A stretch of 64,000 bases of DNA from Clostridia bacterium. GTDB taxonomy: Bacteria; Bacillota; Clostridia; Oscillospirales; CAG-272. The notes beneath the pieces are model-generated. The model did no database searches. It was not told where the DNA came from and was given only the letters and a program-made list of their open reading frames with translations. The position numbers were made by a program, and so were the translations under genes. Positions 3,217-59,320 of this stretch are shown here, one piece after another. The stretch covers positions 1,575 through 65,574 of the forward strand of contig JAFTIH010000027.1 of NCBI GenBank assembly GCA_017456985.1. Direction: 5' to 3'. Numbering within the stretch: the first letter of the stretch is position 1; every line of letters begins with the position of its first letter.

Positions 3217-3246
3217 TCTTTTTCCCCCTCGGAAAACGGAGGAACT

Positions 3247-9939: not shown

Positions 9940-9978
9940 CAAGGCTGTTTGAAATCCAAACAGCCTTGCTTTCCTCTT
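9940..9978 (+). terminator. Intrinsic terminator after ilvE
   Basis: 12-bp stem CAAGGCTGTTTG/CAAACAGCCTTG followed by a T-rich tail. Confidence 0.6.
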
Positions 9979-10048
9979 AAAATGCAAACTTAAGGTTGCT
10001 TTTATGCAAACAATAGTTTACATTTAAAGCAAAAGGAGAAAAACGAAA

Positions 10049-12755: not shown

Positions 12756-12820
12756 TGTTAATTTTTTGTTAAAATTCCAAAATACGGAACCCTCAAAACG
12801 GGGGCTCCATCCCCCAAAAA

Positions 12821-12868
12821 GCAGACGAAACCGTTGTTAAAGGCACGGGCTTTTCGTCTGCTTTTTTT
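12821..12868 (+). terminator. Intrinsic terminator after metA
   Basis: Stem GCAGACGAAA...TTTCGTCTGC followed by TTTTTTT. Confidence 0.75.
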
Positions 12869-13083
12869 CTTTTTTCGGCGTGTTGACGGAGCACGGAACT
12901 TTCGGGGAAAACCCTTCCTTTTCCTCGAAAGTCGCAGAAAAAACGAGTAAAACGGGGCGAAACGGGGGTAAAAATGAAAAAACCGTTAACGGCAAAATGT
13001 AAACCATTCTTTACAAATAGAGGAAAAATTTGGGTTATTTCGCGGCAGAATGTAGGCAAAACATACAAGAAACGCGCGCGAAA

Positions 13084-13100
13084 TTTGTCAATTTGACAAA
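13084..13100. promoter_or_regulatory. Perfect 17-bp palindrome TTTGTCAA-T-TTGACAAA; candidate operator
   Basis: Exact inverted repeat located 26 bp upstream of the -35 element of the large operon promoter. Confidence 0.35.
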
Positions 13101-13125
13101 ATTATTAAAAAAGAGAAAAAAACAG

Positions 13126-13154
13126 TTGATTTTATGAAAGAATTATTATATAAT
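13126..13154 (+). promoter_or_regulatory. Sigma-70-type promoter of the vWA/tubulin-like operon
   Basis: TTGATT (13126-13131), a 17 nt spacer, then TATAAT (13149-13154). This predicts a ~140 nt GC-rich leader before ATG 13300. Confidence 0.55.
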
Positions 13155-13299
13155 GTAACATAGGATTTTATCCCCTAGTATTATATTATAATAAATAAAG
13201 CATGTGCGCCCGTGCGCCCCGCACGCGTCACGGACGGTCCCCCCTCGGGCGGACCGCGAAACTACAACGTGAATTACACCCAGGAAGGAAACAACACGG

Positions 13300-16200
13300 A
13301 TGAAAAAGACGACGAAAATTCTCTCGGTATTGCTCGCGGTGCTTTTGCTCGTTCTGACGGTCCCCGTCACGACGGCGACGGCATCGAACGGCACCGACCC
13401 CTCTTACACCAAGAACAAGGTGGTCTCGGTCCTTTTCGACAACTCGGGCTCGATGCAGGGAGAAAAATGGAATACCGCGCGCTACGCTCTGCAAACGCTG
13501 ATGACGACGCTCGGCAAGAACGATACGCTCCGTGTCGTTCCGATGAACAAGACCAGCGGTGCCGTCAACAAGGACGGAGAATACGTAGAGGTCGATCTTG
13601 CCGCAGAGGATCGCAACAAGGAGATCGAGCGTATCTTTCTCACCGTAGGGGCTACCTTCCTCTCGGCAGCGACCCCCACCGGCAAGACGCCCTCGGAAAC
13701 CATTGGCGTGGCTTTGCAGGAGCTGATAGATATGGGCATGAAAACGACTGCCGAAACGGGCGCCGATGAGATCAGCAAAAACGATTACTTTCTTTTGGTG
13801 CTGACGGACGGTGCCTTCAACCCCAAGGGCGTCCCCGGCGAGGAGATCAAGGATCCCGCCGTGCTCTTTGACGGCTATTTCAAGGACGACCTTTCCAAGT
13901 ACGCTTCTTTCCAAAGCATCTACATCGGCTTCTCGGACGAGGCTCTTGACCTTAGCGCTTATTCCGCAAGCAGCGCGAATTTCTCTGCCTACAAGGCGAA
14001 GGATTCCGCAGCCATCGGCGGCGTGATGAAGCAGGTCGCCAACCGCATCACGGGCAGATACACGTTAGAGAATTTTACGGTCAACGGCAGTACCGTCACC
14101 ATTCCGCTGGATGGCGTGGGCTTTGCCCTAAGAAGCGTAACGGTGATGGCGACCCAGACCAACGCGCGCTTTTCGAGCGCCAAGTACGGAACGGAAACGC
14201 TCACCCCCTCTCAAAACGTGTCCTTCCAGCCCCCTGCCGGAATGGCGGGTAAGGGCGGCTTCACCGCGATCCTTTCCCGTTCTGCGGGAACCTTCTCGGG
14301 CGGCACCATCACCTTGACGCTGGACGAGGCGATCGAGAAAAGCTCCGTTTCCATCCTTCTTGAGCCTGCACTTGCGCTTTCTCCCATCGTGGAATGTGAG
14401 AAGGACGGCTCGTGGATCGAGGTGGATGCGGCTTACATCAACAGCAACCTCACGAAAAAGAACAAGATCCGCCTGTCCTACATCATCACGGAGCAGGGAA
14501 CGGGCAATACGGTGGACCTCGACGCCATTTTCGGCACGACGGTGGCGCGCGTGTCCTACAACACCAAAACATACGACGTCGGCGAAGCGTTCTCTCTTGC
14601 AACGGGTAACCACGAGATCGGACTTTCGGTCAGCGTGATGGACGGCGCGTACAGCCTGTACGCTTCCTTCCCCTGCGTGGTGCTTGACAACCCGACCTCC
14701 TTCCGCATCGAGGACGGCGGAACCGTCACCTCGGGCAACAACTACACCACCACCTTCAAGGTGTTTGACGACGGCAACCTGATCACCAGCCTTTCGGCGC
14801 TGAACGCTTACAGCCCCTCCGTCACGGCGACGCGTGAGGACGGAAGCACCATCCCCGTCAGCGTGATCAAGCGCGATGACGGCACCTTCGCGGCAACGCT
14901 TGCTCTGGACGGCGAGGCGTACGGCACCTTTAAGCTTCGCGCCACGGTGCGCTCGGCGGAGGGCAACCCCCGCACGCTGGACGTTGCGGTAGGGTACTAT
15001 CCTTCGGGACTCGTCATCACCCCCGACAAGACGGAGCTTTCCAAAACGCTCTTTGGCATCATTGACAACACCGAGGGCATCTCCTTCCGCCTGACGGCGC
15101 CCGACGCCGCAACGGGTAACGACATTGAGATCCCCTTCGGTCTTTCGCAGATCACCTACACGGTGACCGCAGGCACGGTGGATCTCACCGCGGCGGCAAG
15201 CGTTTCGGGCAACGTGCTTACGATCGTTCCCACGGCGGAGCTGCTCGGCGCGCTCGCGGGCAGCGTGGGTGAGCACGCGCTCAAGGTGAAGGTCGTCTTC
15301 AACAAGGGCAGCGCGGTCGAAACGGCAGAGGGAAGCGCCAAGCTCGCTCTGACCGATACGGTCTATGAGATCGTTCCCCTTGAAAAGACGCCCGCCCCCA
15401 TCAATCGCTTCTCCCTCTCCAAGAACGAGGGCTCCATCTATTTCCGCGTTCTGCGTGACGGCGTTTCGCTCTCCGAGGAGGAGCTTGCGGCACTGCTTGC
15501 CGACGGCTCGCTGACGGTTAACGCCAATCCTGCGGGCGGACTGCTTGACTTCATCAACGCCATCGGTCCGCTTGCCTCCGAGCAAACGGTGGAAACGGTG
15601 GACGGCGCCCCCGCCATCCGCGCGCGCATCTGCTCGTGTCAGGGCGGCTTCTTACCCTTCATCCTGACTGCAATGTTCGTTTCGGGCGATCGCGTCGAGA
15701 TGACGGCAAGCTATCGCGGTGTGGAGGCGATGAAGGCGGCTCCCCTTGCAAACGCGAGCATCTTCCAGTACGTCATCCGCATTCTCATTTACCTTTACAT
15801 CATCCAGCTGATCATCGTGGCGGTCACCTTCAAGGACCAGACGAAGGTCAAGCGTGTGCCGCAGGGCGCGCTCGTGCGTCTGTCGCTCTCCGCAAAGGAA
15901 GGACGGCACAAGGCGGTGGAAACCGTCAGGATCATCAAGGTCATCAGCCTGAAGGAGCACCTGATGCTCGGACGACTGATCCCCTTCGTAGGACTTCTGC
16001 CGCGCTTCCGCCAGAAGGACGTCCCCACCACCGTGGGCACGCTTCTTTACACCGAGACGGGACTTCGTATGCGCTCTACGCGTGCCTGCGTGGAAGCGGA
16101 GATCCGTACCCGTGACGGCAACAACCCCATCGTTCCCAAGGTTCGCCAGAAGTTTGCGAACATCAAGCCCAAGGGCGGTATCACGCTTCGGTACGAGCCT

Positions 16201-16344
16201 GCGGAGCTGAACAATATGTGGGTCGAGGCAACCGACCAGACCACCGAGGCGGCAAAGCTCTCCCGCCTTGGCACGATGAGCGGCCCCATCTTAAACGACA
16301 ACCTTTACGTCTTTATCGAGAAGAGCTTGTACGAAAAGCGATAA
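13300..16344 (+). CDS. Secreted or membrane-anchored von Willebrand factor A (vWA/MIDAS) protein with a beta-rich ectodomain, a C-terminal TM helix and a ~170 aa tail
   Basis: Signal peptide MKKTTKILSVLLAVLLLVLTVPVTTATA. MIDAS DNSGS (VLFDNSGSM) with downstream TPTGKT and LVLTDG. Long T/S/V/G-rich region. Hydrophobic helix IFQYVIRILIYLYIIQLIIVAVTF (nt ~15761-15832), then a basic tail. Confidence 0.8.
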   Translation: MKKTTKILSVLLAVLLLVLTVPVTTATASNGTDPSYTKNKVVSVLFDNSGSMQGEKWNTARYALQTLMTTLGKNDTLRVVPMNKTSGAVNKDGEYVEVDLAAEDRNKEIERIFLTVGATFLSAATPTGKTPSETIGVALQELIDMGMKTTAETGADEISKNDYFLLVLTDGAFNPKGVPGEEIKDPAVLFDGYFKDDLSKYASFQSIYIGFSDEALDLSAYSASSANFSAYKAKDSAAIGGVMKQVANRITGRYTLENFTVNGSTVTIPLDGVGFALRSVTVMATQTNARFSSAKYGTETLTPSQNVSFQPPAGMAGKGGFTAILSRSAGTFSGGTITLTLDEAIEKSSVSILLEPALALSPIVECEKDGSWIEVDAAYINSNLTKKNKIRLSYIITEQGTGNTVDLDAIFGTTVARVSYNTKTYDVGEAFSLATGNHEIGLSVSVMDGAYSLYASFPCVVLDNPTSFRIEDGGTVTSGNNYTTTFKVFDDGNLITSLSALNAYSPSVTATREDGSTIPVSVIKRDDGTFAATLALDGEAYGTFKLRATVRSAEGNPRTLDVAVGYYPSGLVITPDKTELSKTLFGIIDNTEGISFRLTAPDAATGNDIEIPFGLSQITYTVTAGTVDLTAAASVSGNVLTIVPTAELLGALAGSVGEHALKVKVVFNKGSAVETAEGSAKLALTDTVYEIVPLEKTPAPINRFSLSKNEGSIYFRVLRDGVSLSEEELAALLADGSLTVNANPAGGLLDFINAIGPLASEQTVETVDGAPAIRARICSCQGGFLPFILTAMFVSGDRVEMTASYRGVEAMKAAPLANASIFQYVIRILIYLYIIQLIIVAVTFKDQTKVKRVPQGALVRLSLSAKEGRHKAVETVRIIKVISLKEHLMLGRLIPFVGLLPRFRQKDVPTTVGTLLYTETGLRMRSTRACVEAEIRTRDGNNPIVPKVRQKFANIKPKGGITLRYEPAELNNMWVEATDQTTEAAKLSRLGTMSGPILNDNLYVFIEKSLYEKR

Positions 16345-16373
16345 CCTTTTCGGCATAAGAAAGGAATTTTGAT

Positions 16374-19300
16374 ATGAAAAGCATATTGATCCTTGGCGTC
16401 GGCGGCACCGGCAGCCGCGCCGTCAATCTGTTGCAAAAGAAGATCTCCCGTATGGGACAAAACGAGGAGACCAAGATCGTTTCCATCGTGTTTGATACCA
16501 ATGCGGCAGATGAGAAGAATATCGACGCCGCCTCCGTCATTTCTCTTTCGGAGAATGCGACGGTGGGTATGGTGCGCAACCGTCTTGGCGCACAGTGCAA
16601 CGAGTGGTTCCCGAACGACCACAAGTACGACGAGAACAATCTTTCCATCGGTGCGGGGCAGTGGAGAAAGCAGTCCTATCTTGCGTTCCTCAACGCGATG
16701 AACGACGCCATTCGCCGCAACGAGTTGGATAACGCCTTGCAAAAGCTGGTGGACCAGACGCAGTCGAATTTCTCGATCGACATCTATACCGTCGCCTCGC
16801 TTGCGGGCGGTACGGGCTCGGGTACCTTTATCCCTCTGACGCTGTACGTCAAAAAGCGCTTGCGTCAGCTCTTCCCGAACGCCACCGTGCGTGCCAGAGC
16901 GATGCTCGCCTGCCCCGATATTTACGAGGCAAAGCAGAACGGCGACCGTATGAACATCACGAGCATCTACGCAAACGCGTATGCGATCCTGCGTGAGCTC
17001 AACGGTATCAACCAGGTCGTTTACGGACTTAACGGTGCGGATTACGACAGCGGCAAGGGCGAGGTTGCGGGTCGCGGCAGAACGCCCGTGTCCTTCCGCC
17101 TCGGCAGTGAGCAGAGCCCCGTGGGCGTGCTCTTCGACTCCAAGGATAAAAAATACCATTCTCCCACGGCGGCGCCCTTTGAGCGCGTTTGCCTGATGGA
17201 GAAGATCGTCAACGTGACCTCGGTCGCCGCGCACGACGAGGCGATGGCAAACATCCTGTATTCGCTTATCTGCACCAAGGCGGGCGGCGAGCTCGACGGC
17301 ATCTGGTCCAACGAGGAAAAGAAGCGTGCGGGTGAAACGGGTCACAACTGTATGTATGCGGGCATCGGCTCCTCGGAGATCCAATACCCCGTCGATACGC
17401 TGCTTGAATACTTCGCTTGGCGCAAGACGCGCGACGACGCGGAGGGCGAGTGGCTGGTGTTGCACAACGCCACCGAAGCGCAGATCTCCGAAAAGCGCAA
17501 GCTTGCCAAGGAAATGCGCAAGGAATACCACCTGACCACCGAGGATTACGCAAAGCTCTTCCTCGATGCGCAAAAGGCAGAGGAGCGCACCGAAACGAGC
17601 TCGGTGACCGAGCTCGTGCATTCCGCGATCCGCTACTACGAAAAGGAAAACGGCACGGAAACCCTCAAATACGTCTTTACCGAGTATTGGGACCGCTTAC
17701 AGCAGAGCTTCCGCTCGCTGATCCCCGACCACAAGGCGATCGCGTCGCGCATCGCGACGCTGGATCCCGTACAGCGCCCCGGCATCTTTTCCTCCAAGAG
17801 CACCAAGGAGAGCGCGGCACAGCAGGTCTGCGACAATGCGGAGCAGGTCTATCTGCGCTTGAACGACTACTATCAGATGGCGGTAGATACCATCCGCAGT
17901 CAGGTCAACGTCTGCGCGGACGCGATCCTTCCGCTTGACACCAAGAAGGATCCCTGTGCAAACCTCGGGCTTTCCTTCACCCAGAACGTTCTCGCACGCG
18001 ACGGCAGCTTCATTCACCCCGTAGCGGCGATGGTGCAGCTTTGTACGCTTCGCCTTGCGATCGCGGATACGCTCGCAGGGATGAATTCCGCCGAGTGGAA
18101 GGATCTTTCCTCCTTCGACGTCGGCAAGCTTCCGATGAATCTGCTCGGATGCACGAGTGACCTCTCGGCGCTCGGTCTTGGCGGCAGAGCAAGCAGAAGC
18201 GCTTACTTAAAAAAGGACAGGACCCGTCTTGCCTCCATCCTTTCGGAGTCGGGCAAGGAGGAGTACGTCAAGCAGAAGACGGATTACGAGGCAGACTGTG
18301 CGGCAGTCCTTAAGGACGGCGATATGATCCTCACCCGCCTTGCTAACGAGGCGTACGAAATGCTCCTTAAACGCGTGCTCGGCGTGATCGCTGACCGCGT
18401 CAACACGATGATCGAGAGCTATCGCTCCTTCTTCCGCCGCTTTACCGAGCAGAAGGCTCGCCTTTCGGATCGCGTCAAGCGCGTCGAGGTAGAGCGCACG
18501 GGCTCCTCGGATACCTCCTGCATCTACGTCGGTGCCTCGGTTGAGAGCCGCCGCCGTCACTACGAGCGCCTCTTGGAGGAAAGCATGTCGGGCACGACCG
18601 AGAGCAACAACATCGCAGGCCGCGGCGTCTTTGCCATTTCCTATCAGATGGCGTGCGCAAAGCGCTTCCGCGGCGAGGACGACATCAAGGTGGATACCAC
18701 GGGCGTCTTTACGGCAATGTACGAGGCGAACAAGGTGGCGATCCGCAAGTCGGACTACTTCCACGAGATCGCTTCCAAGACGGTGCTTGAGGTCATCGCG
18801 GACGAGAACGTGGGCAGAGAGAGCGAGGTCGGTAAGAAGATCATGATCACCGCGTACGAGATGGCGAAGCCCGCTCTGCGCGTGATCGAAAACGGAATGC
18901 AGAAGGAACAGGCAGTCGTCCTCGTTCCCGACGCGATGGAAGAATATCTCGAAGCGAACACCCATATCTTCGATCTTTCCGTCGGTGGCGGCGATGCGCG
19001 CGCCTGCACGGACGACCTACTCGGCAGATGGTGCCAGAAGGCGCTCGTCCGTCAGGAGGAGAGCGTTCCTGCCAACACCATCTACATTTGCCGTGCGCTG
19101 ATGAGCGTTGACTCCATCGACATCATCAAGGTCAACGAAAAGAACCTTGAGGACGGCTACTATAAGTATTATCTCGAAACCGTCAGAATGGCGGGCTCCG
19201 ACCGCTCCAAGTGCGCGGACGGCTCGGGCTATTCGGACGACAGCAAGCTGCCGCACCTTGGCTTTAACTGGCACAAGCGCGGCTATTTGCCCCTCATCAA

Positions 19301-20216
19301 CCACGACCTCGAGCTCGAGGCGGACAAGAAGATGGTCAAGGCGCTCCTTTACGCGCTTCTCAACGGCGAGCTTTCCTTTAAGAAGGAATACGGCGACGTC
19401 GCGTTCCGTTACGACGGAGAGAAGATCGTGGGTGACGGCAGATTCGTGGATGACAACAATCTCGTCGGACTGATCTCCTGGCTCCGTCCGCAGGACGATA
19501 AGATCGAGCGCTGGAGCGAGGCGTTTGACCGCGAGGTCGAGGAGCAGCTTGCATCGCTGCCCTCCGCAGGCTTCGTCCACCAGATCGGCAAGGCGAAGAC
19601 GGCACTGACGCTGACGAAGTATCTGAAGATGCTCCGCCGCAACGTCTTTGAAAGCCTCTTCAAGACGGCGGGTAAGGAGAAGGGAAGTGCCGAGGACGAG
19701 AAGAAGTATGCAAAGCTGAAAAAGAAGCTGAACATGAACATCTTCGAGTTCGCTTACCGCATCAAGACGGAAGAGGAAGGGCATTACGGCTACGACTGTA
19801 ACGACGCAGAGAAGATCTTGCGCGTTGTCAGCGACCTGCTTTGGGAGATGTGCGAGCGCGTCATTTCCAGCGACAAGGATCAGTTCAAGGAGGTTTACGA
19901 GTGGGAGCTCGACTACTTCATTGCTGAGATGTACTTTGACGAGGATATGCCCGAGGACGAGGCAGACCGCGTCGCTGTGATGAAGACGATGCTGCACTTT
20001 GCAAACCGTGCAGACAGCTTTATGGAGATCGTTCCCTCCAAGGATCCCAGCAAGAAGTGGGAAAAGAAGGACTACAATCTCTCGGAATTTCTCGAAAAGC
20101 GGATCTCCGCGCTTGACCGCGTTGCGAAAAACAGAGCAAAGAGCGAGGGCGTGGATGAGGGCGAAGCCGACGAGGGTAGAGCTGACGAGCTTCCCCTCGA
20201 TGCCGCCGAGGTATGA
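16374..20216 (+). CDS. Giant tubulin/FtsZ-superfamily GTPase-like protein (Tubulin_2-type N-terminal domain plus ~900 aa helical extension), paralog 1
   Basis: ILILGVGGTGSRAVN at the N-terminus (T1-like loop). GGTGSG signature at nt 16806-16823. GAGQWRKQSYLAF motif. Acidic C-terminal tail EGVDEGEADEGRADELPLDAAEV. SD AAAGGAA upstream. Confidence 0.75.
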   Translation: MKSILILGVGGTGSRAVNLLQKKISRMGQNEETKIVSIVFDTNAADEKNIDAASVISLSENATVGMVRNRLGAQCNEWFPNDHKYDENNLSIGAGQWRKQSYLAFLNAMNDAIRRNELDNALQKLVDQTQSNFSIDIYTVASLAGGTGSGTFIPLTLYVKKRLRQLFPNATVRARAMLACPDIYEAKQNGDRMNITSIYANAYAILRELNGINQVVYGLNGADYDSGKGEVAGRGRTPVSFRLGSEQSPVGVLFDSKDKKYHSPTAAPFERVCLMEKIVNVTSVAAHDEAMANILYSLICTKAGGELDGIWSNEEKKRAGETGHNCMYAGIGSSEIQYPVDTLLEYFAWRKTRDDAEGEWLVLHNATEAQISEKRKLAKEMRKEYHLTTEDYAKLFLDAQKAEERTETSSVTELVHSAIRYYEKENGTETLKYVFTEYWDRLQQSFRSLIPDHKAIASRIATLDPVQRPGIFSSKSTKESAAQQVCDNAEQVYLRLNDYYQMAVDTIRSQVNVCADAILPLDTKKDPCANLGLSFTQNVLARDGSFIHPVAAMVQLCTLRLAIADTLAGMNSAEWKDLSSFDVGKLPMNLLGCTSDLSALGLGGRASRSAYLKKDRTRLASILSESGKEEYVKQKTDYEADCAAVLKDGDMILTRLANEAYEMLLKRVLGVIADRVNTMIESYRSFFRRFTEQKARLSDRVKRVEVERTGSSDTSCIYVGASVESRRRHYERLLEESMSGTTESNNIAGRGVFAISYQMACAKRFRGEDDIKVDTTGVFTAMYEANKVAIRKSDYFHEIASKTVLEVIADENVGRESEVGKKIMITAYEMAKPALRVIENGMQKEQAVVLVPDAMEEYLEANTHIFDLSVGGGDARACTDDLLGRWCQKALVRQEESVPANTIYICRALMSVDSIDIIKVNEKNLEDGYYKYYLETVRMAGSDRSKCADGSGYSDDSKLPHLGFNWHKRGYLPLINHDLELEADKKMVKALLYALLNGELSFKKEYGDVAFRYDGEKIVGDGRFVDDNNLVGLISWLRPQDDKIERWSEAFDREVEEQLASLPSAGFVHQIGKAKTALTLTKYLKMLRRNVFESLFKTAGKEKGSAEDEKKYAKLKKKLNMNIFEFAYRIKTEEEGHYGYDCNDAEKILRVVSDLLWEMCERVISSDKDQFKEVYEWELDYFIAEMYFDEDMPEDEADRVAVMKTMLHFANRADSFMEIVPSKDPSKKWEKKDYNLSEFLEKRISALDRVAKNRAKSEGVDEGEADEGRADELPLDAAEV

Positions 20217-20287
20217 CCCGTTTTCGGGTGACCGCGCAATCAAAAGCTTTCATTATTAAAATATATATATCTTGAAGGAGAAGAAAA

Positions 20288-24052: not shown

Positions 24053-24157
24053 TTCCCGGCGGGTTGTCCGCCAAAAATTTCCCGATGCCCTATACGGGCA
24101 TCGGGACCCCCAAAGGGGCGCCGCAAGGACGCCCGATCAAAGAAAGGGTTGAAACCG

Positions 24158-26179
24158 ATGTTAACCTATGTGATCAATACGTCTGAGAATAAGGTTTTGA
24201 AGAGTGAGATTCTTTTCGATCTTGTCGGATATAACAAGATCGAATGGATGCGCAGCGGACTTTCTGCCGTCGCGGACTGCACCGATGAGATCATTCGCCG
24301 TCAACAGCCTATGACCGCGGAGGAATACCGCGTGGTGGTGCTCGTTGACTTTTTGGCGTTTGAAAAGACGCTGTTTCCCGAAGAAAATCCGGTCAGCGAA
24401 TATCTGACGATTTACAGAAAGCTGATTGAAATATATCTTTATAACCATCTTTATATGCCGCTTCGCCGTGCCAAGCTCGGCTTTGAGGGGCTTGAGGTGT
24501 TCTATATTCAATACACCGAGAAGAACACCATCCGCGAAAACGCGGCGGAGAAGATGCACTTAGCCCAGCTTTTAGAGCTTTCCGAGGAGGAGATCGAGCG
24601 CGCGGCGGGCAAGGTGGACGAGGAGAAGAAGGACGCGGAGGAAAGCGCCCCCAAATCTGCGCGCGCAAAAGCCAAAAAGCAGGAAGAAGAGGAGCCGACC
24701 GAGACGAAGACGCCCGCGCAGGTGTACGACGTCTTCAAGGTCGCGTACCGCGACGGGGAGTTTTTCTTCCGTGCCGAGGATTTCTGCAAGAATACCAAGG
24801 CGGGAGAGTCGGTGACCTTTGACACCTTCTACCGCAATTTTGGCGAAAACCACGTAAACGCGTACCGCGCCTTCGGCGCCCGCTCGCGCACCTACGTAGC
24901 GGAGGCGGCGTCTGCAAGACTTGAAAGCCGCGCCGCGTTCGATAACTTGAATTTGTCGCTCGCCCTCATCCGTGCTTACGAGCAGGATATGAAGTTTGAG
25001 GACGCGACGGAGAGCGACGACGTTTTGGACATCCCCAAGATGAACAAGGAAGCGTTCTTCCGTGTGATCCAAAAGGCATACGGCAAGGTGAAAAACGCCC
25101 TTGAGCTCGTCCGTCAGAGCGGAAAAGCCAACGGCTTCTACCGCTTGGAAACGCCCACCTCCGTGTCTGCGGATATTTGCCGCGACACCCTGACGGATGA
25201 AGAGCGGACGGAGATCAGCTCCCAAGCCAAGGGGAAGGACATCAAGGATCAGTTTGCCGAGATCCGCCGCTACGCCGCGACCAAGGCGGGAGAGAAGAGC
25301 GACGACGAGCGCAAGAAGCTGACCCAATATATGAGCGCTTACAAAACGGAGCGCGATAAGATCCGCAACCACACGACGGAGCAGGACGTCAAGATGATGC
25401 TCCGCGACGCGAAAAAGCAGGACAAGTACCCCTCGGGTTTAGAATATGAAAACGCGGTCGAGAAGAAAAAATCGACGATGCGCACCATTTTGAAGCACGC
25501 GATCAACGCCGACTACAAGGGCACCGATTACGAGGAAGAGATGAAGGACGCCAACGAGGTCTATGACGGCTACCTGCGCGCCAAGGCAATGCTTGCGAAG
25601 AATTTCCGCACGCACGTCGTTTGCCTGCTTCTCGTTCTCGTGGCGATGATCGTTCCGTACGTCGTGTTGCAGAGCACGGATTTTTCCCGCGTGGGCGCGA
25701 TCCTGCTCGCTTCGATCGCCGTCGCGATCTTCAGCGGCGTGTACATTTTTTCAGCCTTCGTCCACATCATTCCTCTTATGCGGCAGATCACGGCGGCGAA
25801 GATCAGAATGACGGACATCTATGCCAAGTGCCTTTGCAAGCGCGCTGAGGCGATGCTTGCCCTGCGCCATCGCTACGAGCTGTACCTGCCCGCCGTGGAG
25901 CAGATCTACTACGAGCTTTACACGCTTGAGGTCCTGCACAATGCTAACCGCGAGATCAATCGCCATATCGAGGAGCACAGAGAGATGCTCGAATGCCTGC
26001 GCGACGTTCTTCTCGGTATGCTCAACAGTATGCAGGTCACGCACAGAGCGACGGAGGACGTGGCGCTCGACGAGGACGAATTCCTCATCGGCGAGTCCAT
26101 CCGTGCCAACAGTATTTATAAAGTCTTTACGCTTGACGTGATCGAAGAGATCTTTGGAGAGGGAGGTATGAGAATATGA
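24158..26179 (+). CDS. Membrane protein of unknown function: N-terminal globular domain, charged K/E-rich helical region, two TM helices
   Basis: I prefer ATG 24158 (SD AAAGAAAGGG) over TTG 24149. Highly charged region EEEIERAAGKVDEEKKDAEESAPKSARAKAKKQEEEEP. Hydrophobic helices VVCLLLVLVAMIVPYVVL and VGAILLASIAVAIFSGVYIFSAFVHIIPL. I recognise no family. Confidence 0.6.
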   Translation: MLTYVINTSENKVLKSEILFDLVGYNKIEWMRSGLSAVADCTDEIIRRQQPMTAEEYRVVVLVDFLAFEKTLFPEENPVSEYLTIYRKLIEIYLYNHLYMPLRRAKLGFEGLEVFYIQYTEKNTIRENAAEKMHLAQLLELSEEEIERAAGKVDEEKKDAEESAPKSARAKAKKQEEEEPTETKTPAQVYDVFKVAYRDGEFFFRAEDFCKNTKAGESVTFDTFYRNFGENHVNAYRAFGARSRTYVAEAASARLESRAAFDNLNLSLALIRAYEQDMKFEDATESDDVLDIPKMNKEAFFRVIQKAYGKVKNALELVRQSGKANGFYRLETPTSVSADICRDTLTDEERTEISSQAKGKDIKDQFAEIRRYAATKAGEKSDDERKKLTQYMSAYKTERDKIRNHTTEQDVKMMLRDAKKQDKYPSGLEYENAVEKKKSTMRTILKHAINADYKGTDYEEEMKDANEVYDGYLRAKAMLAKNFRTHVVCLLLVLVAMIVPYVVLQSTDFSRVGAILLASIAVAIFSGVYIFSAFVHIIPLMRQITAAKIRMTDIYAKCLCKRAEAMLALRHRYELYLPAVEQIYYELYTLEVLHNANREINRHIEEHREMLECLRDVLLGMLNSMQVTHRATEDVALDEDEFLIGESIRANSIYKVFTLDVIEEIFGEGGMRI

Positions 26180-29100
26180 CGGTTTTAAAGATCGTATTTA
26201 TCGTCGTATCGCTTTTGCTCCTGTTCTTCCCCCTCTTGCCGCTTCCTATGAAGCTGCGCAAGTTCTCCACCTTCCGCAAGCTGCGCTACGACGCGCCTCA
26301 CAACCGTGTGAACGCGGCGTTTATTCTCTTGACCATCCTTGAATTCGTGGCGATCGCCATCGTTTACAGCGCGATCTTTACGCTGGCGATCAAGATCGCC
26401 TCCGTTCCCTTTATCGCGAGCCTTTTGCAGAAATTCTCGGACACGGTGGCGTTCAACAGCAACGTGCTCTTCCGCGTGCTGCTTCTCAACATCGTCACCC
26501 TTTACGCCTTCCTTATCCTGAAAGCCATCGTCAAGGGCTTCTTGAACGTGCTGTTCGGCTTTACCAAGAAGAAGGCAAAGAAAAAGAAGAAAAAGGAAGC
26601 GGAGGAAGCGACGGCTGACGAAAAGCCCGCAAAGCGGAAAAAGAAGCCCGGCCGCATCTCCTATTTCTTCCGTCCCCGCCGTAAGAAAAAGACGGACGAG
26701 GAGGACGAGGAGCCCTCTGCACAGGACGAAAAGCCGACCGAGCGTGTGGTTACGGCAAAGAACGAGAAGTTCAAGAAGGAACACCCCATTCTTTTCCGTA
26801 TGTATCAGAAATTCTGGGGACTGTTCTTTGAGGGTCCCGATTTCTACCACGCAAAGCGCTTCGTTTCGTCTGCAGTTTCCGCGATCCAGTTCTTTATCTA
26901 TCTGGTCGAGATCCTTTACGCGATCTTGTTCCTCTTGATGCTTCTCGCCGTATTTTTCCCGCTTCCTTCGTTCTTCTACGGCGTGCTCAACTGGATGACG
27001 ATCAAGACCTACATCTATCCCTTCGTGTCGCTTTTGCTGTTGCAGGAGATCTGCAACACCTTCCGCGCACCTTGCAAGGAGATCGAGCCCGTAGAGGAAA
27101 CCTACGAGAAGGAGATCGAAGAGGTCGAACAGCAGAAGAAGATCGCGCTTGACAAGCTGCGCAACGATATTCTTCGCCGCTTTGCCAAGAATCACAGCAT
27201 CCGCTTCTTCCCCGCAACGGATGCGAAGGAAATGTCCGAGTATCACGTGACGAGCAAGGTCTATCAGGACGCCCTCACGTATATCGGCACCTATATGAAA
27301 GAGAACTACGGACGCGTGGTGCAGAGCTATATGAGCGGTCTTGACGCCGTGTTCAACGACCGTCACGTGTATTTCGGCTCCTCCTTCTATTCTCAGCTTG
27401 GCGAATACATCATCACCTATACTTATATCCGCCTGCTTTCGGGACAGAGAATGATCTTTATCGTTTCCGACCGCTCGCAGGTCGTGAAGCTGCAGCAGTA
27501 TATCGGTAACCGCCTGACGGATATCACGGGCGTGACGCGCGAGGAGACCTGGCGCGTTTACAGTGCCGACTCGCATCACGTCAACGAAGCGGACGTTCTC
27601 GTGGGTGTTCCCGAGGACTTTGCGACGGATAACCTGGTTGAAAACTACCCCGCCTTCTTCGAAGAGGTGTGCAACGCCGTCTTCGTGGATGCGGACAGCA
27701 TTTTGAATCTCAACAGCTACCTTTGCACCATTATGGCGTGCCGCCTGCTTTCGGCGACCGAGCAAAAGATCCGTTTCCTTTTCCTCTCGCGCGACGTCCT
27801 GCAGGGCTTCTCCGCGTCCTTGCGCAAGTTCTTCTGCATCGACGAGGAGATCGTGGACTGCAACAGCGCCGAGGAAAACGAAAACGTTTCCTATATGCTT
27901 TGGAACCGTGAGTGCAACTCGCTTTACAACAAGAACGGACAGAGCGAGACCACGATCGAGTGCCTCGTCGCGGAAGCGGCTTACAGCGCGGACGTGGACG
28001 GCATCCGTATTCTGACGAGCGTACCCCTTAAGCCTGCCGAGAAGCAGAACTTCCTAGCACACGACGTGGAGATCAACGAGTTCCATAAGAAGGTGCCGCG
28101 CGTCAACTATATGATCTGCACCGATGACCGCTGCAACCTTGCCGCCGCCATCTATGCGTACACGCGTTTCCACGGCAGAGAAGCCTCGATCGTGCATATT
28201 CTCAGCCGTCCCTATCTGCTTCGCGAATACTTCGGCGACCGCGTTGAGCTGTACGTCAATCGCTCCGATCTGATCAAGCCCCGCGCGACCGAGCACGCAG
28301 ACACCAAGAAGCTGCTCCTTCTGCGCCTCGTTTGCGAAGCCACCTCAAGCCCGAGCGGCATTCCGCTCTCCGTCTTCACCGAGAAGGTGGATGCCATTAT
28401 GACGGAGCGTGGCTGTGCGCCCGCCTTCGACCTTTCCGCCCGCGTCGCTTACGTGCTCAGCGAGCTGATGAGCGACTCCACTCTCATCGAGAAGACGGAA
28501 GAGGAAAAGAGCGACGGAACGCTTACCTACTATACCAAGGCGAAGAAGCCCGTTTATACCTACTTTATCGTGCTCCAGCCCGAGCGTAAGGACGGCTACA
28601 CGTTGAAGAACGAAAACGGCATCACCTTCCTTTGCCTTGAACGCATCTTTGATAAGCTTCTTGCCAACAACCGCCGCGTGGAGCTCGTTCTGCACGGCTC
28701 GGTGATCGGCACGCTGGAAACCTTCCCCGAGCGCGTTTATCAGCAGTACGTTCCCGGTCAATACATCATTTTTGACAACCACGAGTATGAAATTGAGAAG
28801 ATCTCGGATGACCGTACCGTCATTTATTTAAGACAGGAGAACATCACCAACAACTCTTGTCTTGATACGGCATTCCTTCGCCATTACGAGGTGCGCCGCC
28901 GTCACGACGACGAGCATTTCCTGCACGGCGAAAAGGAATACAGCGCAGGACAGCTTTTGAAGATCGAAACGGTCGTACAAAACGCAAGCATCCTGGGCGA
29001 GACGTACGGTACGTACCGACTGATGGCAGACAGCCAGACGCTCAACTTCAAGGATCTTGTGGGCGGTAACTTCCGCCTTGCGGACAGCGTCATCAAGAAG

Positions 29101-31647
29101 CAGGCAAGAAAGTTAGACAACGGACGCGTCTTGACCGTCCGCCTGACGGCAAACGAGCCCTGCGACGACGGCGTCAGGCGCCTGCTTGCCGCTGTGCTCA
29201 ACGAATTTCTGCGCACGATGTTCCCCGAGACCTACCGTTGCGTTGCGGTCTGTCCCGTGCTCCGCACGCCCCTTTCCAAGGAAAAGGGTGAGGCGGCTAC
29301 CGACTTTAACAGCCGCGTGGAATCCTTGTATCCTTATCTGCTTTGCTGTGAGGATGAAGACGGCGCTTCGGGTACCAAGGACAACGTCTGCGAATTTCTG
29401 ATCATCAACGACGCGCACGAGGACGTGGGTATCCTCGACCGTCTGTACGACGGCAGTGCGCGCATTATGGAGGAGATCTTCTCCTACATTTACGACTACC
29501 TTATCTGGCTCAAATCCAAGCCCACGCTTCCCGAGGGGGATGCGCACTACATCTACTTCGGTAGCGACACGCTTCCCGAGGTTTATGCACTGGATGAGAG
29601 CATCGCGCTCCTTGCCAACTGTGCAAGAGAGTTCGGTGTGCTGGAGGACGAGGAAGAGGTCGAAAAGCCCACGCACTGCTCCTTCTGTAAGAAGCCGCTC
29701 GTGACGGGTCGCTACGCGATCTACGACGAGAACCGCTACATCTGCTTTGACTGTCAGGTGGAAAGCATCAGCGATGAGGACGCTTTGGAAAAGACGGTGA
29801 GCGCAGTGGAAGCCTATTGGAAGGAAGCCTTCCCGCTCGTACCCCTTCCCGAGGGTGTCAGCTTTGATCTTGCCGATCCCTTCTCGCTGGAGGAAGGACA
29901 GGATCAGACGGAGTACTTCTACCGTCTGCATTATGAGGACAGACGCGTCGATATTGAATGCGACCTTCCCGAGAAGAGCGTATTCGCCGCCGTTTTGCGT
30001 GCGTATATGGCAGTTTACCATCGCGACGGCAATATCGTGACCCCTGCGGCAGAGGCACAGCTTTACTTTGAGGAGCTGCGTTATCTTGACACCGTCGGCG
30101 CCGCAGAGCGCGCCGCCTACGTGCGTGAGCAGATCCCCGATTGGATGGCTCCTATCCTTGACGAGATGAAGGCGTACGTCGGTGACGGCGCAGAGGGTAA
30201 GACCTCCTTTGACTACGTAGCGGAGAATTCCGTTCCCGAGGAGCCCGAGGAAATCGTTCCTACGCCGGGCGACGACGAAAACGGCACCGACAACTCGGAT
30301 GCTCTGTACGATCCCGACCGTGTACCGCGCTTCTGGAAGCGCTATTTGCGCGGCAAGCAAGCCAGCGATGACGACACAGATGAGGACGCTCTGCCCGCAG
30401 ATGCCGAGGACGGCGATGCGGCAGACGAGGGCGCCGAGGACGTGGCAGAAACGGGTGCCGAGGATGCGGGTGCAAAGCCCAAGAAGAAGGGCAAGCTCTC
30501 CAAGCTCAAAACGGGTGAGGAGCTCATCCCCTACGAGGCAGAGGAAAAGACCAACCCCGAGATCCGTCTTTACAACCGTTTTGCCCGCGCGATCGCCGAT
30601 TTCAGCGATCAGCCCATCCCTTGTGAGGGTATGTCGCTTGCGACGGTCAACAAGATCTACTACCTCGTGCTTTACGATTATCCCGAGTTCTTTTGGGTGG
30701 AGAACGGTTATCGCTACAACCACGACGGCAAGGGTCACGTCAATAGCCTCTTGCTTTCCTTCCGTTGCCTTGGCAGTGACGGCAAGATCGACATTGCCCG
30801 TGTGCAGAAGTACAGACGCGAGCTGCGTGCCAGCGTGAAATTCTTCACCAAGGGCATCACGCGCAAGACGAGCCCCTACGACGCACTGCTTACCATCTAC
30901 CGTCGCCTGATCCTCAACCTCGACTACGACGGTGTGGGACTTGATGGCGGTGCAGGCAGAAGCGTGCGCGACGAGGATACGCTCCGTTCGCTTCACAGCG
31001 CTCTCGTAGAGCGCAAGGTCGTTTGCCAGGGCTACGCCGTGGCGATGCAGTACCTGTTGCAATCGGTTGGTATTTGTTGCGGTCAGGTCGTCAGCCAGAC
31101 GCACTCTTGGAACGTCGTTAAGATCGACAAGCAGTGCTACTTCCTGGATGCAACCTGGGGCGACAACTCCAACACCAAGACGGGTGAGGATTATAAGAAC
31201 GTCGTTGGCTATGAATACTTCTGCGTTCCCGCCAAGGAAAACCTGCTTGGCGAAAAGGCAGAGGTTCGTATGCCCGACCCCAATATCTTCGTGGGACTTG
31301 AGGAGTTCCGCGCAACGAAGCACGAATATGCGCGTTTCCACGGCGGCTACCTGACCTCGTACGACGTGGACCAGATCGCCGCGGCATTCGCCAAGGCGGC
31401 GACCGCCCGTCCCTTCGAGAAGGAGCGACCCAGCGTGATGTTCCGTTGCCGCGACGTTGCTGTGTTCCGTATGGTTCAGGATTATCTGTTCAAGGGACGC
31501 GGCTGGCAGACGGCAATGCAAAAGGCGCAAGCCATCGTTGCCGAGGACGGCAAGAACAAGCGTGCGCAAAAGCTGCTTTCGGGCGGTATCTCCTGGTGGT
31601 ACAGCGAAAAGCATCTGACGCTGACCATCTTCTTCACGGAAGAATAA
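26176..31647 (+). CDS. 1823 aa polytopic membrane protein with a zinc ribbon and a C-terminal transglutaminase-like (Cys-His-Asp) domain
   Basis: ATGA overlap with the upstream gene. At least 5 N-terminal hydrophobic helices split by a poly-K/E linker (KKKAKKKKKKEAEE). HCSFCKK...ICFDCQ zinc ribbon at nt 29672-29757. Acidic disordered stretch. Core VCQGYAVAMQYLL (Cys codon 31024-31026), THSWNVV (His 31102-31104) and FLDATWGD (Asp 31147-31149). Confidence 0.75.
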   Translation: MTVLKIVFIVVSLLLLFFPLLPLPMKLRKFSTFRKLRYDAPHNRVNAAFILLTILEFVAIAIVYSAIFTLAIKIASVPFIASLLQKFSDTVAFNSNVLFRVLLLNIVTLYAFLILKAIVKGFLNVLFGFTKKKAKKKKKKEAEEATADEKPAKRKKKPGRISYFFRPRRKKKTDEEDEEPSAQDEKPTERVVTAKNEKFKKEHPILFRMYQKFWGLFFEGPDFYHAKRFVSSAVSAIQFFIYLVEILYAILFLLMLLAVFFPLPSFFYGVLNWMTIKTYIYPFVSLLLLQEICNTFRAPCKEIEPVEETYEKEIEEVEQQKKIALDKLRNDILRRFAKNHSIRFFPATDAKEMSEYHVTSKVYQDALTYIGTYMKENYGRVVQSYMSGLDAVFNDRHVYFGSSFYSQLGEYIITYTYIRLLSGQRMIFIVSDRSQVVKLQQYIGNRLTDITGVTREETWRVYSADSHHVNEADVLVGVPEDFATDNLVENYPAFFEEVCNAVFVDADSILNLNSYLCTIMACRLLSATEQKIRFLFLSRDVLQGFSASLRKFFCIDEEIVDCNSAEENENVSYMLWNRECNSLYNKNGQSETTIECLVAEAAYSADVDGIRILTSVPLKPAEKQNFLAHDVEINEFHKKVPRVNYMICTDDRCNLAAAIYAYTRFHGREASIVHILSRPYLLREYFGDRVELYVNRSDLIKPRATEHADTKKLLLLRLVCEATSSPSGIPLSVFTEKVDAIMTERGCAPAFDLSARVAYVLSELMSDSTLIEKTEEEKSDGTLTYYTKAKKPVYTYFIVLQPERKDGYTLKNENGITFLCLERIFDKLLANNRRVELVLHGSVIGTLETFPERVYQQYVPGQYIIFDNHEYEIEKISDDRTVIYLRQENITNNSCLDTAFLRHYEVRRRHDDEHFLHGEKEYSAGQLLKIETVVQNASILGETYGTYRLMADSQTLNFKDLVGGNFRLADSVIKKQARKLDNGRVLTVRLTANEPCDDGVRRLLAAVLNEFLRTMFPETYRCVAVCPVLRTPLSKEKGEAATDFNSRVESLYPYLLCCEDEDGASGTKDNVCEFLIINDAHEDVGILDRLYDGSARIMEEIFSYIYDYLIWLKSKPTLPEGDAHYIYFGSDTLPEVYALDESIALLANCAREFGVLEDEEEVEKPTHCSFCKKPLVTGRYAIYDENRYICFDCQVESISDEDALEKTVSAVEAYWKEAFPLVPLPEGVSFDLADPFSLEEGQDQTEYFYRLHYEDRRVDIECDLPEKSVFAAVLRAYMAVYHRDGNIVTPAAEAQLYFEELRYLDTVGAAERAAYVREQIPDWMAPILDEMKAYVGDGAEGKTSFDYVAENSVPEEPEEIVPTPGDDENGTDNSDALYDPDRVPRFWKRYLRGKQASDDDTDEDALPADAEDGDAADEGAEDVAETGAEDAGAKPKKKGKLSKLKTGEELIPYEAEEKTNPEIRLYNRFARAIADFSDQPIPCEGMSLATVNKIYYLVLYDYPEFFWVENGYRYNHDGKGHVNSLLLSFRCLGSDGKIDIARVQKYRRELRASVKFFTKGITRKTSPYDALLTIYRRLILNLDYDGVGLDGGAGRSVRDEDTLRSLHSALVERKVVCQGYAVAMQYLLQSVGICCGQVVSQTHSWNVVKIDKQCYFLDATWGDNSNTKTGEDYKNVVGYEYFCVPAKENLLGEKAEVRMPDPNIFVGLEEFRATKHEYARFHGGYLTSYDVDQIAAAFAKAATARPFEKERPSVMFRCRDVAVFRMVQDYLFKGRGWQTAMQKAQAIVAEDGKNKRAQKLLSGGISWWYSEKHLTLTIFFTEE

Positions 31648-31662
31648 CGCCTAAAATAAAAG

Positions 31663-31693
31663 AAAATGCCATCCCGCGAGGGATGGCATTTTT
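31663..31693. terminator. Bidirectional intrinsic terminator between convergent operons
   Basis: Stem AATGCCATCCC / GGGATGGCATT with a GCGA loop, flanked by an A-run and a T-run. Confidence 0.85.
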
Positions 31694-31701
31694 GATGCTC
31701 T

Positions 31702-41234: not shown

Positions 41235-41464
41235 CTTGATATGCGTTGAAGCGAGAGGTTGCCGCTAAAAGCGGGTAATTTTCGTGGAGTATGTCCGACA
41301 AATCGGGCGAAACACACTAGCCCCCTGCGTCAAAACCGCGATCCCGGGTTCTGCCTTTGCGGAAAGGCGATTCCCGGATAACTTTCGTAGAGGTTTGAAA
41401 CGCGCGGAGCCGTGTGAATGGCAATCGCCCCCCTGAGAAAGAATTCTAAAAGGAGGCAGACAAA
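41235..41464 (+). promoter_or_regulatory. Long (~230 nt) structured 5' leader of the S10 operon
   Basis: Non-coding stretch between the promoter and rpsJ with several GC-rich inverted repeats. No long ORF is present. Confidence 0.4.
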
Positions 41465-58145: not shown

Positions 58146-58155
58146 GGGAGGTCTT

Positions 58156-59319: not shown

Positions 59320-59320
59320 A

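Follow-up and report, generated by a model that had tools for sequence, protein, structure and literature searches.

The 64-kb window analyzed here (64,000 nucleotides, positions 1,575 to 65,574 of the forward strand of contig JAFTIH010000027.1, assembly GCA_017456985.1, from a Clostridia bacterium) contains five co-directional open reading frames (ORFs) on the + strand, denoted g1 to g5, that make up an operon of the FtsZl1-vWA class, that is, a variant of a class predicted by comparative genomics in 2010 (Makarova and Koonin, 2010) and not a categorically new system. In order, g1 (13300-16344) encodes a type I membrane protein of 1014 amino acids (aa); g2 (16374-20216) a tubulin/FtsZ-like protein of the FtsZl1 family (1280 aa); g3 (20288-24052) a paralog of g2 (1254 aa); g4 (24158-26179, with an alternative TTG start at 24149) an orphan membrane-hairpin protein (673 aa); and g5 (26176-31647) a membrane-anchored multidomain protein (1823 aa). 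The ORF listing of the window reproduces the gene coordinates of an earlier description of this DNA made by a model without database searches (hereafter, the sequence-only reading), and the layout given there, with intergenic gaps of 29, 71 and 105 nt (g1-g2, g2-g3 and g3-g4, respectively), an ATGA overlap of g4 and g5 and a single terminator behind the last gene, is confirmed in the sequence. The overlap is accompanied by a ribosome-binding site, AGGGAGG, 9 nt upstream, and g4 and g5 are predicted to be translationally coupled.

The five genes are predicted to form a single transcription unit. The near-consensus promoter of the sequence-only reading, TTGATT-17-TATAAT (13126-13154, +), is indeed present in the 540-nt AT-rich intergenic region downstream of the preceding homoserine O-succinyltransferase (HTS) gene, matches the consensus at 10 of 12 positions and is the top sigma-70-type match within 12500-32000; the promoter scan itself, however, yielded no enrichment over shuffled sequences (10 found vs 6.9 expected), and the site is best described as a plausible promoter of the operon. 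The predicted fold of the 5' leader is unremarkable (z = -1.7). At the other end, a bidirectional intrinsic terminator (31662-31693, both strands), with a stem of 13-14 bp and T-runs on either side, is common to the operon and the convergent sbcC gene. The gap between g3 and g4 holds a strong hairpin with an 11-bp stem including 8 G-C pairs (24080-24106), which has a T-run on the - strand only; lacking a U-tract on the + strand, it does not qualify as an intrinsic terminator of the operon and does not contradict read-through, and it might be an mRNA processing or stability element, or might make one half of the transcript more stable than the other. Directly past it, at ~24117-24136, is another G+C-rich stem. 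Antisense ORFs are numerous across the operon owing to its G+C content.

For the conservation survey, one genome per Genome Taxonomy Database species was scanned, followed by tblastn with all five proteins. The order g1-tubulin(s)-g4-g5 was found in about 45 species-level metagenome-assembled genomes (MAGs) at 25-45% protein identity, and it holds wherever the contig is long enough; the sequence-only reading, which took the five genes for one unit, is borne out in this respect. The MAGs are labeled Oscillospiraceae, Christensenellaceae, 'Eubacteriales', Candidatus Scatosoma and similar, and their named sources are animal or human gut samples. The chromosomal context of the operon differs between lineages, the position after the HTS gene being limited to the narrow clade of the window, and all 45 of 45 metagenomic loci with a 67-73% identical HTS, which are distant from the window, lack a downstream operon. 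In remoter Clostridia a single tubulin-like gene is present and g1, g4 and g5 are kept, so that the predicted core of the operon consists of four families.

The parallel extends to Proteobacteria. A Zetaproteobacterial MAG (locus L057, 2255-10962) and a Panacagrimonas MAG (locus L061, 1880-13089) contain FtsZl1 operons, each with a g1-like type I vWA protein, an FtsZl1 gene that is similar beyond the GTPase domain, and a last protein of about 1000 aa in which an intact zincin motif (HELTH) occurs alongside the zinc (Zn)-ribbon region of g5. In L057, moreover, a protein with a hairpin of two transmembrane (TM) helices occupies the position of g4, and a separate 276-aa protein with 5 TM helices occupies that of the g5 anchor, just upstream of the soluble Zn-ribbon protein. 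As anchor and Zn-ribbon protein are separate genes in L057, g5 appears to be a fusion, and the operon architecture appears old and seems to predate the split of these phyla. The L057 zincin protein also yields a weak Pfam match to DUF6782. Within the Clostridia, loci L005 and L007 both come from MAG SIG648 (SVRR01), and loci L008 and L010 from JAZSBJ01; a single MAG thus contains two complete, divergent copies of the locus, either copy having its own CysMet-HTS flank, with g3 88% and 75% identical to that of the window. Such a double-copy bin probably mixes two related strains or species, in which case divergent operon alleles would coexist in one sample.

On their sequences and modeled fold, g2 and g3 are members of the tubulin/FtsZ superfamily and, within it, of the FtsZl1 family, in agreement with the sequence-only reading, which had called them tubulin/FtsZ-like paralogs. 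The two proteins are 61% identical over their full length (BLASTP), and the first ~360 residues of each (16374-17453 in g2 and 20288-21367 in g3, + strand) comprise the predicted GTPase fold. The Pfam family Tubulin_2 (PF13809, gathering score 27) matches g2 at aa 5-350 with an E-value of 2.7e-36 (126 bits) and g3 with an E-value of 3.7e-33 (116 bits), and the motifs GVGGTGS and AGGTGSG are present in both. In an AlphaFold2 model of residues 1-1200 of g2 (pLDDT 86.5), the first ~360 residues superpose on the full chains of CetZ, FtsZ, gamma-tubulin and TubZ with a Foldseek probability of 1.0 (for CetZ2, 4b45, E 2.3e-4 over 364 aligned columns and a TM-score on the target of 0.46; TM-scores on the targets about 0.45 in general). 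Searches of the PDB with the single g2 sequence or with the family profile gave no meaningful match. First-position copies show no variation in the T1 (GGTGS) and T4 (GGTGSG) loops, which are intact in both window copies as well, and GTP binding by g2 and g3 is a prediction well supported by motifs and model alike. Past the GTPase domain, g2 continues for ~850-900 residues that are chiefly helical in the model, with long helices at aa 475-518 and 638-706, and have no PDB match; FtsZ_C and Tubulin_C domains are absent from both proteins.

Most lineages have two or three tubulin-like copies that arose by repeated duplication. A neighbor-joining tree built from the GTPase domains shows slow evolution of the first-position copy and long branches for the second-position copies; the latter are also shorter, with T1 and T4 loops that are often eroded. 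The g2/g3 pair of the window is a separate, more recent, lineage-specific duplication in this tree. That adjacent paralogs, two or more in number, have been retained repeatedly suggests that g2 and g3 could form a heteromer. At two loci of close relatives (L006:10001-18953 and L009:5144-15228) three tubulin-like genes stand in a row, two full-length and one divergent and shorter (857-950 aa), the third copy of L006 being cut off by the contig end; the divergent third copy may have been lost in the lineage of the window.

Judged from hydropathy and charge, g1 is a type I membrane protein, with a signal peptide (aa 1-28), an ectodomain of about 800 aa, a TM helix (aa 825-843, 15772-15828, +) and a cytoplasmic tail of ~170 aa (aa 844-1014). 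The ectodomain consists of a vWA domain (aa ~38-235) followed by a beta-rich stalk that extends to aa ~820. The outward-facing metal-dependent adhesion site (MIDAS) noticed by the sequence-only reading, DNSGS behind the signal peptide of a membrane protein, can be read directly at aa 47-51, and the complete set of MIDAS residues (D47, S49 and S51 of the D-x-S-x-S motif, T130 and D170) is invariant in 25 g1 orthologs. The Pfam VWA model matches the window g1 weakly (E 0.017, 15.8 bits, below the cut-off of 23.8), but a hidden Markov model of the g1 family matches the vWA protein of L057 with an E-value of 1.6e-37, and the latter passes the Pfam VWA cut-off (26.2 bits vs 23.8). Given the invariant MIDAS and this transitive link, we assign to g1 a vWA domain with a predicted intact MIDAS. 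Some g1 orthologs also match the Ig-like families Big_6 and Big_13; the g1 family profile has no meaningful match in the PDB. An extracellular portion is predicted for g1 alone among the five proteins. Furthermore, of the operon genes g1 evolves fastest and is the most mosaic: in close relatives it is 47% identical where g3 is 88% identical, and its tail and ectodomain track different relatives. The top g1 match in one Christensenellaceae MAG is a single ORF of 2324 aa, about twice the usual size (L030:3010-9984), with a further g1-like match upstream of and outside this ORF (63-2714), which suggests duplication of g1 in that lineage.

For g5 the sequence-only reading had proposed a membrane protein with a zinc ribbon and a Cys-His-Asp transglutaminase/protease-like core. 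The ribbon and the core are invariant in the homologs; g5 is, however, not simply a membrane or transglutaminase protein, for its central ~900 aa are modeled as an MrfA/DUF1998 fold. The protein begins with a predicted polytopic membrane anchor (aa 1-~295, 26176-27060, +), with hydropathy segments at aa 3-21, 45-63, 91-129 and 229-267 and a poly-lysine cytoplasmic loop. The region that follows (aa ~340-1150 plus the Zn ribbon, 27193-29754, +) has the fold of an MrfA/YprA-like SF2 helicase: an AlphaFold2 model of aa 300-1450 (pLDDT 84.3, pTM 0.80) retrieves MrfA in Foldseek (6znp_A, E 2.3e-21 over 910 aligned columns; 6zns, TM-score on the target 0.61), with RecQ1, Hel308, Pol-theta helicase and Brr2 as the next matches at about 1e-7. 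By sequence or profile, the helicase-like region is undetectable against any helicase in Pfam or the PDB. Presumably, the same helicase/DUF1998 fold is common to the defense helicases of DISARM and Druantia. The 4-Cys Zn ribbon (CSFC...CFDC, aa 1168-1193, 29677-29754, +) has cysteines 1168, 1171, 1190 and 1193 invariant in 78 of 78 g5 homologs.

A Walker A motif is missing: neither [AG]x4GK[ST] nor GK[ST] occurs anywhere in aa 300-1300. At the position of motif I, which was placed from the strand-loop-helix pattern of the model, g5 has a near-invariant SFYSxLGEY, and motif II reads DxD[RK], not DExH, with D505 and D507 near-invariant. Without a Walker A lysine and a DExH motif, no ATP-driven translocation is expected. 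The model points to an MrfA/DUF1998 helicase fold devoid of the ATPase P-loop, that is, a putative pseudo-helicase scaffold or a domain with a different ligand, and not to an active MrfA-family helicase; conservation at the former motif I and II positions would imply a functional site there. The candidacy of g5 as a DO-GTPase was rejected, as there is no conserved P-loop; a single GDGAEGKT in g5 is not conserved among homologs, and neither g4 nor g5 matched a GTPase family.

Beyond the ribbon of g5, between aa ~1200 and 1290 (29773-30045, +), lies a decayed zincin-like segment, recognized by hhalign of the g5 profile with the 977-aa protein of L057 (probability 97.2, E 3e-11), in which VLRAYMAVYHRD of g5 is aligned with LVHELTHVWQH of the L057 protein. 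HExxH stands 115-125 aa past the Zn ribbon in the L057 and L061 proteins and is absent from g5 and all 82 Clostridia homologs, which suggests that an ancestral zincin site decayed in the Clostridia clade. Preceded by an acidic disordered linker, a transglutaminase-like domain follows (aa ~1493-1742, 30652-31401, +), which matches PDB entry 9crn_A with E-values of 4.8e-10 (single sequence) and 1.6e-28 (profile); a literature search found no paper associated with 9crn. Pfam Transglut_core (PF01841) scores 21.6 bits for the window g5 (cut-off 23) and 39.2 bits for an ortholog (L052), and an NCBIfam scan of the five proteins gave a partial transglutaminase-related match in g5 alone. None of the 64 homologs with this domain departs from the predicted catalytic triad C1617-H1643-D1658. 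In several species this domain is a separate, adjacent downstream gene without signal peptide or TM helix; because of this stand-alone form, the domain is predicted to be cytoplasmic and functionally linked to the rest of g5.

The remaining component, g4, is an orphan. Topology prediction divides it into a cytoplasmic N-domain (aa 1-485), two TM helices recognized by hydropathy (aa 486-504 and 512-530, 25613-25747, +) and a cytoplasmic C-domain (aa 531-673). Neither the window protein nor 27 orthologs match any Pfam family at E <= 0.05, and no PDB relative was found by sequence or family profile. Against 1.84 billion representative sequences, the g4 profile has just 133 matches, all of g4 type, and the position of the gene between the tubulin-like gene(s) and g5 is constant. 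The hhalign comparisons of g4 with the FtsZl1 profile and with the 536-aa hairpin protein of L057 are insignificant. As a candidate GAP1 or SLATT protein, g4 was rejected at the sequence level, Pfam being empty and the profile search returning only its own family.

The operon resides among housekeeping genes. Upstream lie genes for an Aminotran_4 protein, a Cys/Met-metabolism enzyme and the metA-like HTS; downstream are the convergent sbcCD, an AI-2E transporter and polA, then an S10-Clostridia leader (41237-41310), the only Rfam match over the whole window, and the SecY/ribosomal protein cluster. The leader, SecY and the housekeeping flanks, together with proteins identical to those of the operon in MAGs labeled 'Clostridia bacterium', establish that the sequence is chromosomal and from Clostridia. 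No mobile-element families were detected among the flanking and other window ORFs scanned and there is no tRNA in the window, so that the sequence-only reading was correct in seeing no integrase, phage or transposon genes next to the operon.

A few other features of the window deserve mention. Two long ORFs overlap on opposite strands at 9977-11206 (-) and 10049-11332 (+); the latter is the Cys/Met-metabolism pyridoxal phosphate enzyme, as called in locus L002, with a translation 82-87% identical in syntenic loci, and the former, without a family match, is probably spurious. The tandem paralogs at 581-2845 and 3208-5547 each join a cupin domain to an AMP-binding (adenylate-forming) enzyme, and the second has an additional N-terminal HTH domain, an unusual regulator-enzyme fusion. 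The G+C content falls to 0.45-0.49 at 58000-62000, compared with about 0.55-0.60 elsewhere, and three ORFs there (58084-59319, 59835-60776 and 60832-61986 on the - strand) have no Pfam match at E <= 1e-5; this segment, with a ThiF-family gene as its neighbor (62011-62757, - strand), is possibly a small island of foreign origin.

The 78 flanking genes from independent loci are likewise mostly housekeeping, and their matches in PADLOC are largely generic ATPase cross-matches. The exception is TIR-domain genes, which adjoin the operon in six species. In five of these, the gene encodes a TIR domain with a BspA-type leucine-rich repeat (LRR), lies a few kb upstream in either orientation and is 66-97% identical between loci (L003:3357-5003, L043, L048:2265-3863, L015:2433-4010 on the - strand, L035:253-1812 on the - strand, and L024:7-963); in the sixth (L077:1-2404, - strand), a different protein with TIR and beta-propeller domains abuts a four-gene version of the operon. 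The window has no TIR gene. As evidence for either inherited synteny or a link to immunity, these neighbors are suggestive only. Between the TIR-LRR gene and g1, two loci of one sub-clade (L003:5096-6619 and L048:5048-6646) encode a polytopic protein of ~507-530 aa, 51% identical between the species and without a family match, which may be an extra operon component.

Taken as a whole, these data are best explained by a membrane-spanning complex of the FtsZl1-vWA class that couples a sensor, a tubulin-like assembly and a peptidase, an explanation to which we would give somewhat short of an even chance. Outside the cell, g1 would present a metal-dependent, ligand-binding MIDAS vWA domain on a beta-rich stalk, connected through a single TM helix to a cytoplasmic tail. 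Two further proteins, g4 with its hairpin and g5 with its polytopic anchor, would provide a platform on the cytoplasmic side of the membrane, with g5 contributing a helicase-shaped, P-loop-less scaffold, the Zn ribbon and a putative Cys-His-Asp transglutaminase-like peptidase. The predicted GTP-binding proteins g2 and g3, with their long helical extensions, could form a hetero-oligomer or filament at this platform; their GTP-dependent assembly might be governed by ligand binding at g1 and, in turn, might control the activity or reach of the g5 peptidase, the presumed enzymatic output. The biological role is the least certain step, and might be surveillance at the cell surface in a conflict setting involving phage, a competitor or contact with the host.

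Each element of this scheme has its own support. The case for a functional unit rests on the gene order conserved in about 45 species across contexts, the four-gene versions with one tubulin-like gene, the proteobacterial parallel and the coupling of g4 to g5, and the case for pairing of the tubulin-like proteins on the two or three copies in most lineages, one of which is often degenerate in its GTP loops. For a peptidase output, the strongest argument is that the zincin decayed while a different peptidase fold was added, either fused or adjacent. For a role in conflict speak the fast and mosaic evolution of g1, the displacement of a catalytic domain, the presumed kinship in fold with defense helicases, the TIR neighbors and the precedent of Kaur et al. 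(2020). We slightly favor conflict or surveillance, as a tentative choice well short of even probability, over a housekeeping role in envelope or membrane remodeling. More specifically, and with still less assurance, one may imagine a trans-envelope signaling and effector machine with a tubulin homolog as transducer, serving surface surveillance or immunity in gut Clostridia: capture of a ligand by the vWA domain would lead to a giant FtsZl1 hetero-polymer on the membrane platform, which would switch on the tethered pseudo-helicase/peptidase effector, and the same ancient architecture would reach into Proteobacteria with the peptidase module exchanged.

Several observations weigh against this interpretation. 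The complex itself, polymerization, and the GTPase and peptidase activities are proposals inferred from sequences and models. A canonical T7 loop is not identifiable in g2 and g3, where the loop directly after H7 (aa 217-240 of g2) is variable and of low model confidence; the motif GxLFD255xxD258 (94% and 83% conserved) lies ~35 residues past the post-H7 loop and is a T7 candidate only, and T6-H7 was likewise not found in the FtsZl1 family by Makarova and Koonin (2010). The helicase-like domain of g5 might bind nucleic acid, a property that the proposed scheme ignores. As for defense in particular, the five proteins have no match in PADLOC-DB 2.0 at E <= 0.1, no viral relatives of the operon occur in 2.9 million viral contigs, the flanks are housekeeping here and at most other loci, and retention of the operon looks long-term and vertical. 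The TIR-LRR neighbors are mutually orthologous and may, therefore, reflect one or two inherited syntenies. Finally, in the locus with the same flanks (L002), the metabolic neighbors are 80-92% identical, the operon proteins 36-50% and SbcC 35%; because neighboring SbcC diverges equally fast, rapid divergence is not unique to the operon, and we claim no arms-race signal.

Many of these facts would suit a housekeeping cytoskeletal system for membrane or envelope remodeling, the original interpretation published for the FtsZl1 family (Makarova and Koonin, 2010). On this view, polymers of FtsZl1 tethered through g4 and g5 would give the membrane its shape, remodel it or organize the surface, g1 would be an external anchor to wall or matrix, and the g5 peptidase would process envelope or cytoskeletal components. 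Such a role accords with three of five proteins being membrane-anchored, with the candidate tubulin-superfamily polymer, with a chromosomal site among core genes (metA-like HTS, sbcCD, polA and the ribosomal protein cluster), with gene order that is stable over several Clostridia families, and with the lack of matches in defense libraries and of viral copies. It has difficulty, however, with a cytoplasmic transglutaminase-like domain, which cannot act on the wall, with an extracellular part that is mosaic and evolves fastest, with a second tubulin copy that repeatedly degenerates and a peptidase type that is swapped, and with a helicase-like fold that has no obvious place in membrane remodeling. 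We regard the housekeeping role as possible, at less than even odds, and as the most probable of the alternatives. The helicase-like fold would be at the center of another, a nucleic-acid-handling machine: DNA or RNA bound at the membrane through the MrfA-like part of g5 would be transported or positioned by the tubulin-like proteins, possible purposes being the uptake or transfer of DNA, its repair, or the seizing of DNA that invades the cell. The fold match to a DNA-bound helicase includes its Zn-binding domain (E 2.3e-21), the Zn ribbon is invariant, and conservation is high where motifs I and II stood formerly; moreover, TubZ, which positions plasmids, and PhuZ, which positions phage DNA, are precedents for such use of tubulin-like proteins. 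Nevertheless, we consider this machine improbable: there is no Walker A lysine and no DExH, the helicase region is invisible to sequence search, the operon contains no nuclease, recombinase, DNA-binding adaptor or centromere-like repeat, and the extracellular vWA domain and peptidase output would go unexplained.

The conflict systems described by Kaur, Burroughs, Iyer and Aravind (2020; eLife) offer a further home for the operon. These DO-GTPase/GAP1-N2 systems have a TRAFAC double-GTPase and GAP1 as a switch and variable tubulin and vWA components, and their Firmicutes 'tubulin theme' pairs two tubulin and coiled-coil genes with a membrane protein whose vWA domain is extracellular. The two tubulin-like genes and the extracellular-vWA membrane protein of the window fit this theme, and yet both defining core components are missing: g4 and g5 lack a conserved P-loop, and no GAP1, DO-GTPase or SLATT match was obtained with the window proteins or with 25-27 orthologs each of g1 and g4. 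The g4 profile reaches only its own narrow family, the immediate outside neighbors are HTS and sbcC, and there is a single vWA gene without a YtkA fusion. Membership is, in our estimation, very unlikely. Chance juxtaposition of unrelated genes or an annotation artefact may be practically dismissed, being refuted by the same families in the same order in about 45 species and in different contexts, and by the stop-start overlap of g4 and g5. A membrane-spanning FtsZl1-vWA-class complex with a peptidase output remains, in our view, the best account, and the two functional proposals of the sequence-only reading, a transmembrane cytoskeletal or surface-organizing apparatus and an NTP-dependent conflict system, are decided neither way by the present evidence.

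Few branches of the tubulin/FtsZ superfamily are as divergent as the FtsZl1 family, and the FtsZl1-vWA class, predicted sixteen years ago, stands as an open problem in prokaryotic cytoskeleton biology for which the present locus is a well-defined and widely conserved version for study. Experimental handles are at hand in the invariant MIDAS, the intact GTP loops in both paralogs, the Cys-His-Asp triad and the conserved non-ATPase site of g5. As far as we could establish, the helicase-shaped, P-loop-less domain is new for this operon class; also new are the swap of a zincin for a transglutaminase-like domain and the cytoplasmic placement of the latter, the four-family core, the repeated duplication of the tubulin-like gene with one degenerate copy, and the breadth of the operon in gut Clostridia. 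That a cysteine peptidase has taken the place of a zincin speaks for proteolysis, or isopeptide chemistry, as the conserved output. The resulting testable hypotheses extend to the FtsZl1-vWA class at large, with its representatives in Bacillus, Actinobacteria, Planctomycetes and archaea, and the transducer model, if true, would mean a category of function new to the tubulin superfamily.

With respect to known systems, the closest counterpart is in the work that the sequence-only reading cited, which does describe both the family and the vWA-linked operons: Makarova and Koonin (2010) defined FtsZl1 together with these operons and suggested that they act in membrane remodeling. Additional file 5 of that study contains the layout vWA-FtsZl1-B5-B12, where B12 combines a zincin with a Zn finger, in Ruminococcus lactaris (RUMLAC_01529-01526) and 'Bacteroides' capillosus (BACCAP_04124-04121), with sizes of 732/1136/678/1418 and 861/1183/658/1435 aa. 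The window proteins (1014, 1280 and 1254, 673, and 1823 aa, the last ~1450 aa without its added C-terminal module) have the same gene order and similar sizes, a comparison made by order, size and description. Common to both are giant proteins, at least about 1000 aa long, in which an FtsZ-like GTPase at the N terminus is followed by long helices and a mostly helical C-terminal portion; a vWA protein, encoded upstream, that is membrane-associated and has its MIDAS intact; and a ~670-aa protein followed by a very large membrane-associated Zn-finger protein. Unlike in the 2010 layout, the FtsZl1 gene of the window is duplicated, with copies 61% identical, and, unlike B12, g5 lacks HExxH and has an added Cys-His-Asp transglutaminase-like domain; the MrfA-like helicase fold was not reported in the 2010 work. 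The sequence-only reading, which recognized no characterized pathway of this composition, was right insofar as no experimental study, structure or phenotype of the FtsZl1-vWA class was found in the literature and structure libraries searched, but the composition itself has precedents in the predictions of 2010 and 2020. In later work the Tubulin_2 group served as an outgroup only, with a remark on its irregular architectures (Santana-Molina et al., 2023), and our literature search found neither papers linking DUF1998/MrfA to tubulin or vWA systems nor a follow-up of the DO-GTPase systems.

The operon shares with the Firmicutes theme of Kaur et al. (2020) the tubulin-like g2 and g3 and the extracellular vWA domain of g1, and in both cases a predicted membrane-proximal location and the idea of a regulated cytoskeleton-like assembly come together. 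It differs in that neither a DO-GTPase (Walker A, Walker B Glu) nor GAP1, nor an FNIII-repeat protein, nor a second, YtkA-fused vWA protein was detected, and in having g4 and g5 in place of the DO-GTPase/GAP1 components; as both defining components are absent, the operon does not belong to the DO-GTPase/GAP1-N2 class. With MrfA/YprA (6znp, 6znq and 6zns), g5 shares a fold of ~900 residues with two RecA-like domains and a C-terminal four-Cys Zn-binding (MZB) domain, at only about 10% identity; in contrast to MrfA, it has no GxGKT or DExH, is membrane-tethered and is fused to peptidase modules. Like alpha/beta-tubulin, BtubA/B, FtsZ, CetZ and TubZ, g2 and g3 have the GTPase fold with T1 and T4 loops, and unlike these, each carries about 900 extra residues; the one degenerate nucleotide site in the paralog pairs of many relatives may be loosely compared to the non-exchangeable or non-hydrolyzing subunits of tubulins. 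A functional analogy, and nothing beyond that, may be drawn to the membrane anti-phage sensors of the Zorya type, which combine an envelope sensor, an elongated cytoplasmic structure and membrane-recruited helicase- or nuclease-like effectors. No homology between the two was detected and the operon has no MotAB-like stator; in the operon, the transducer would instead be a tubulin homolog, and the output a peptidase.

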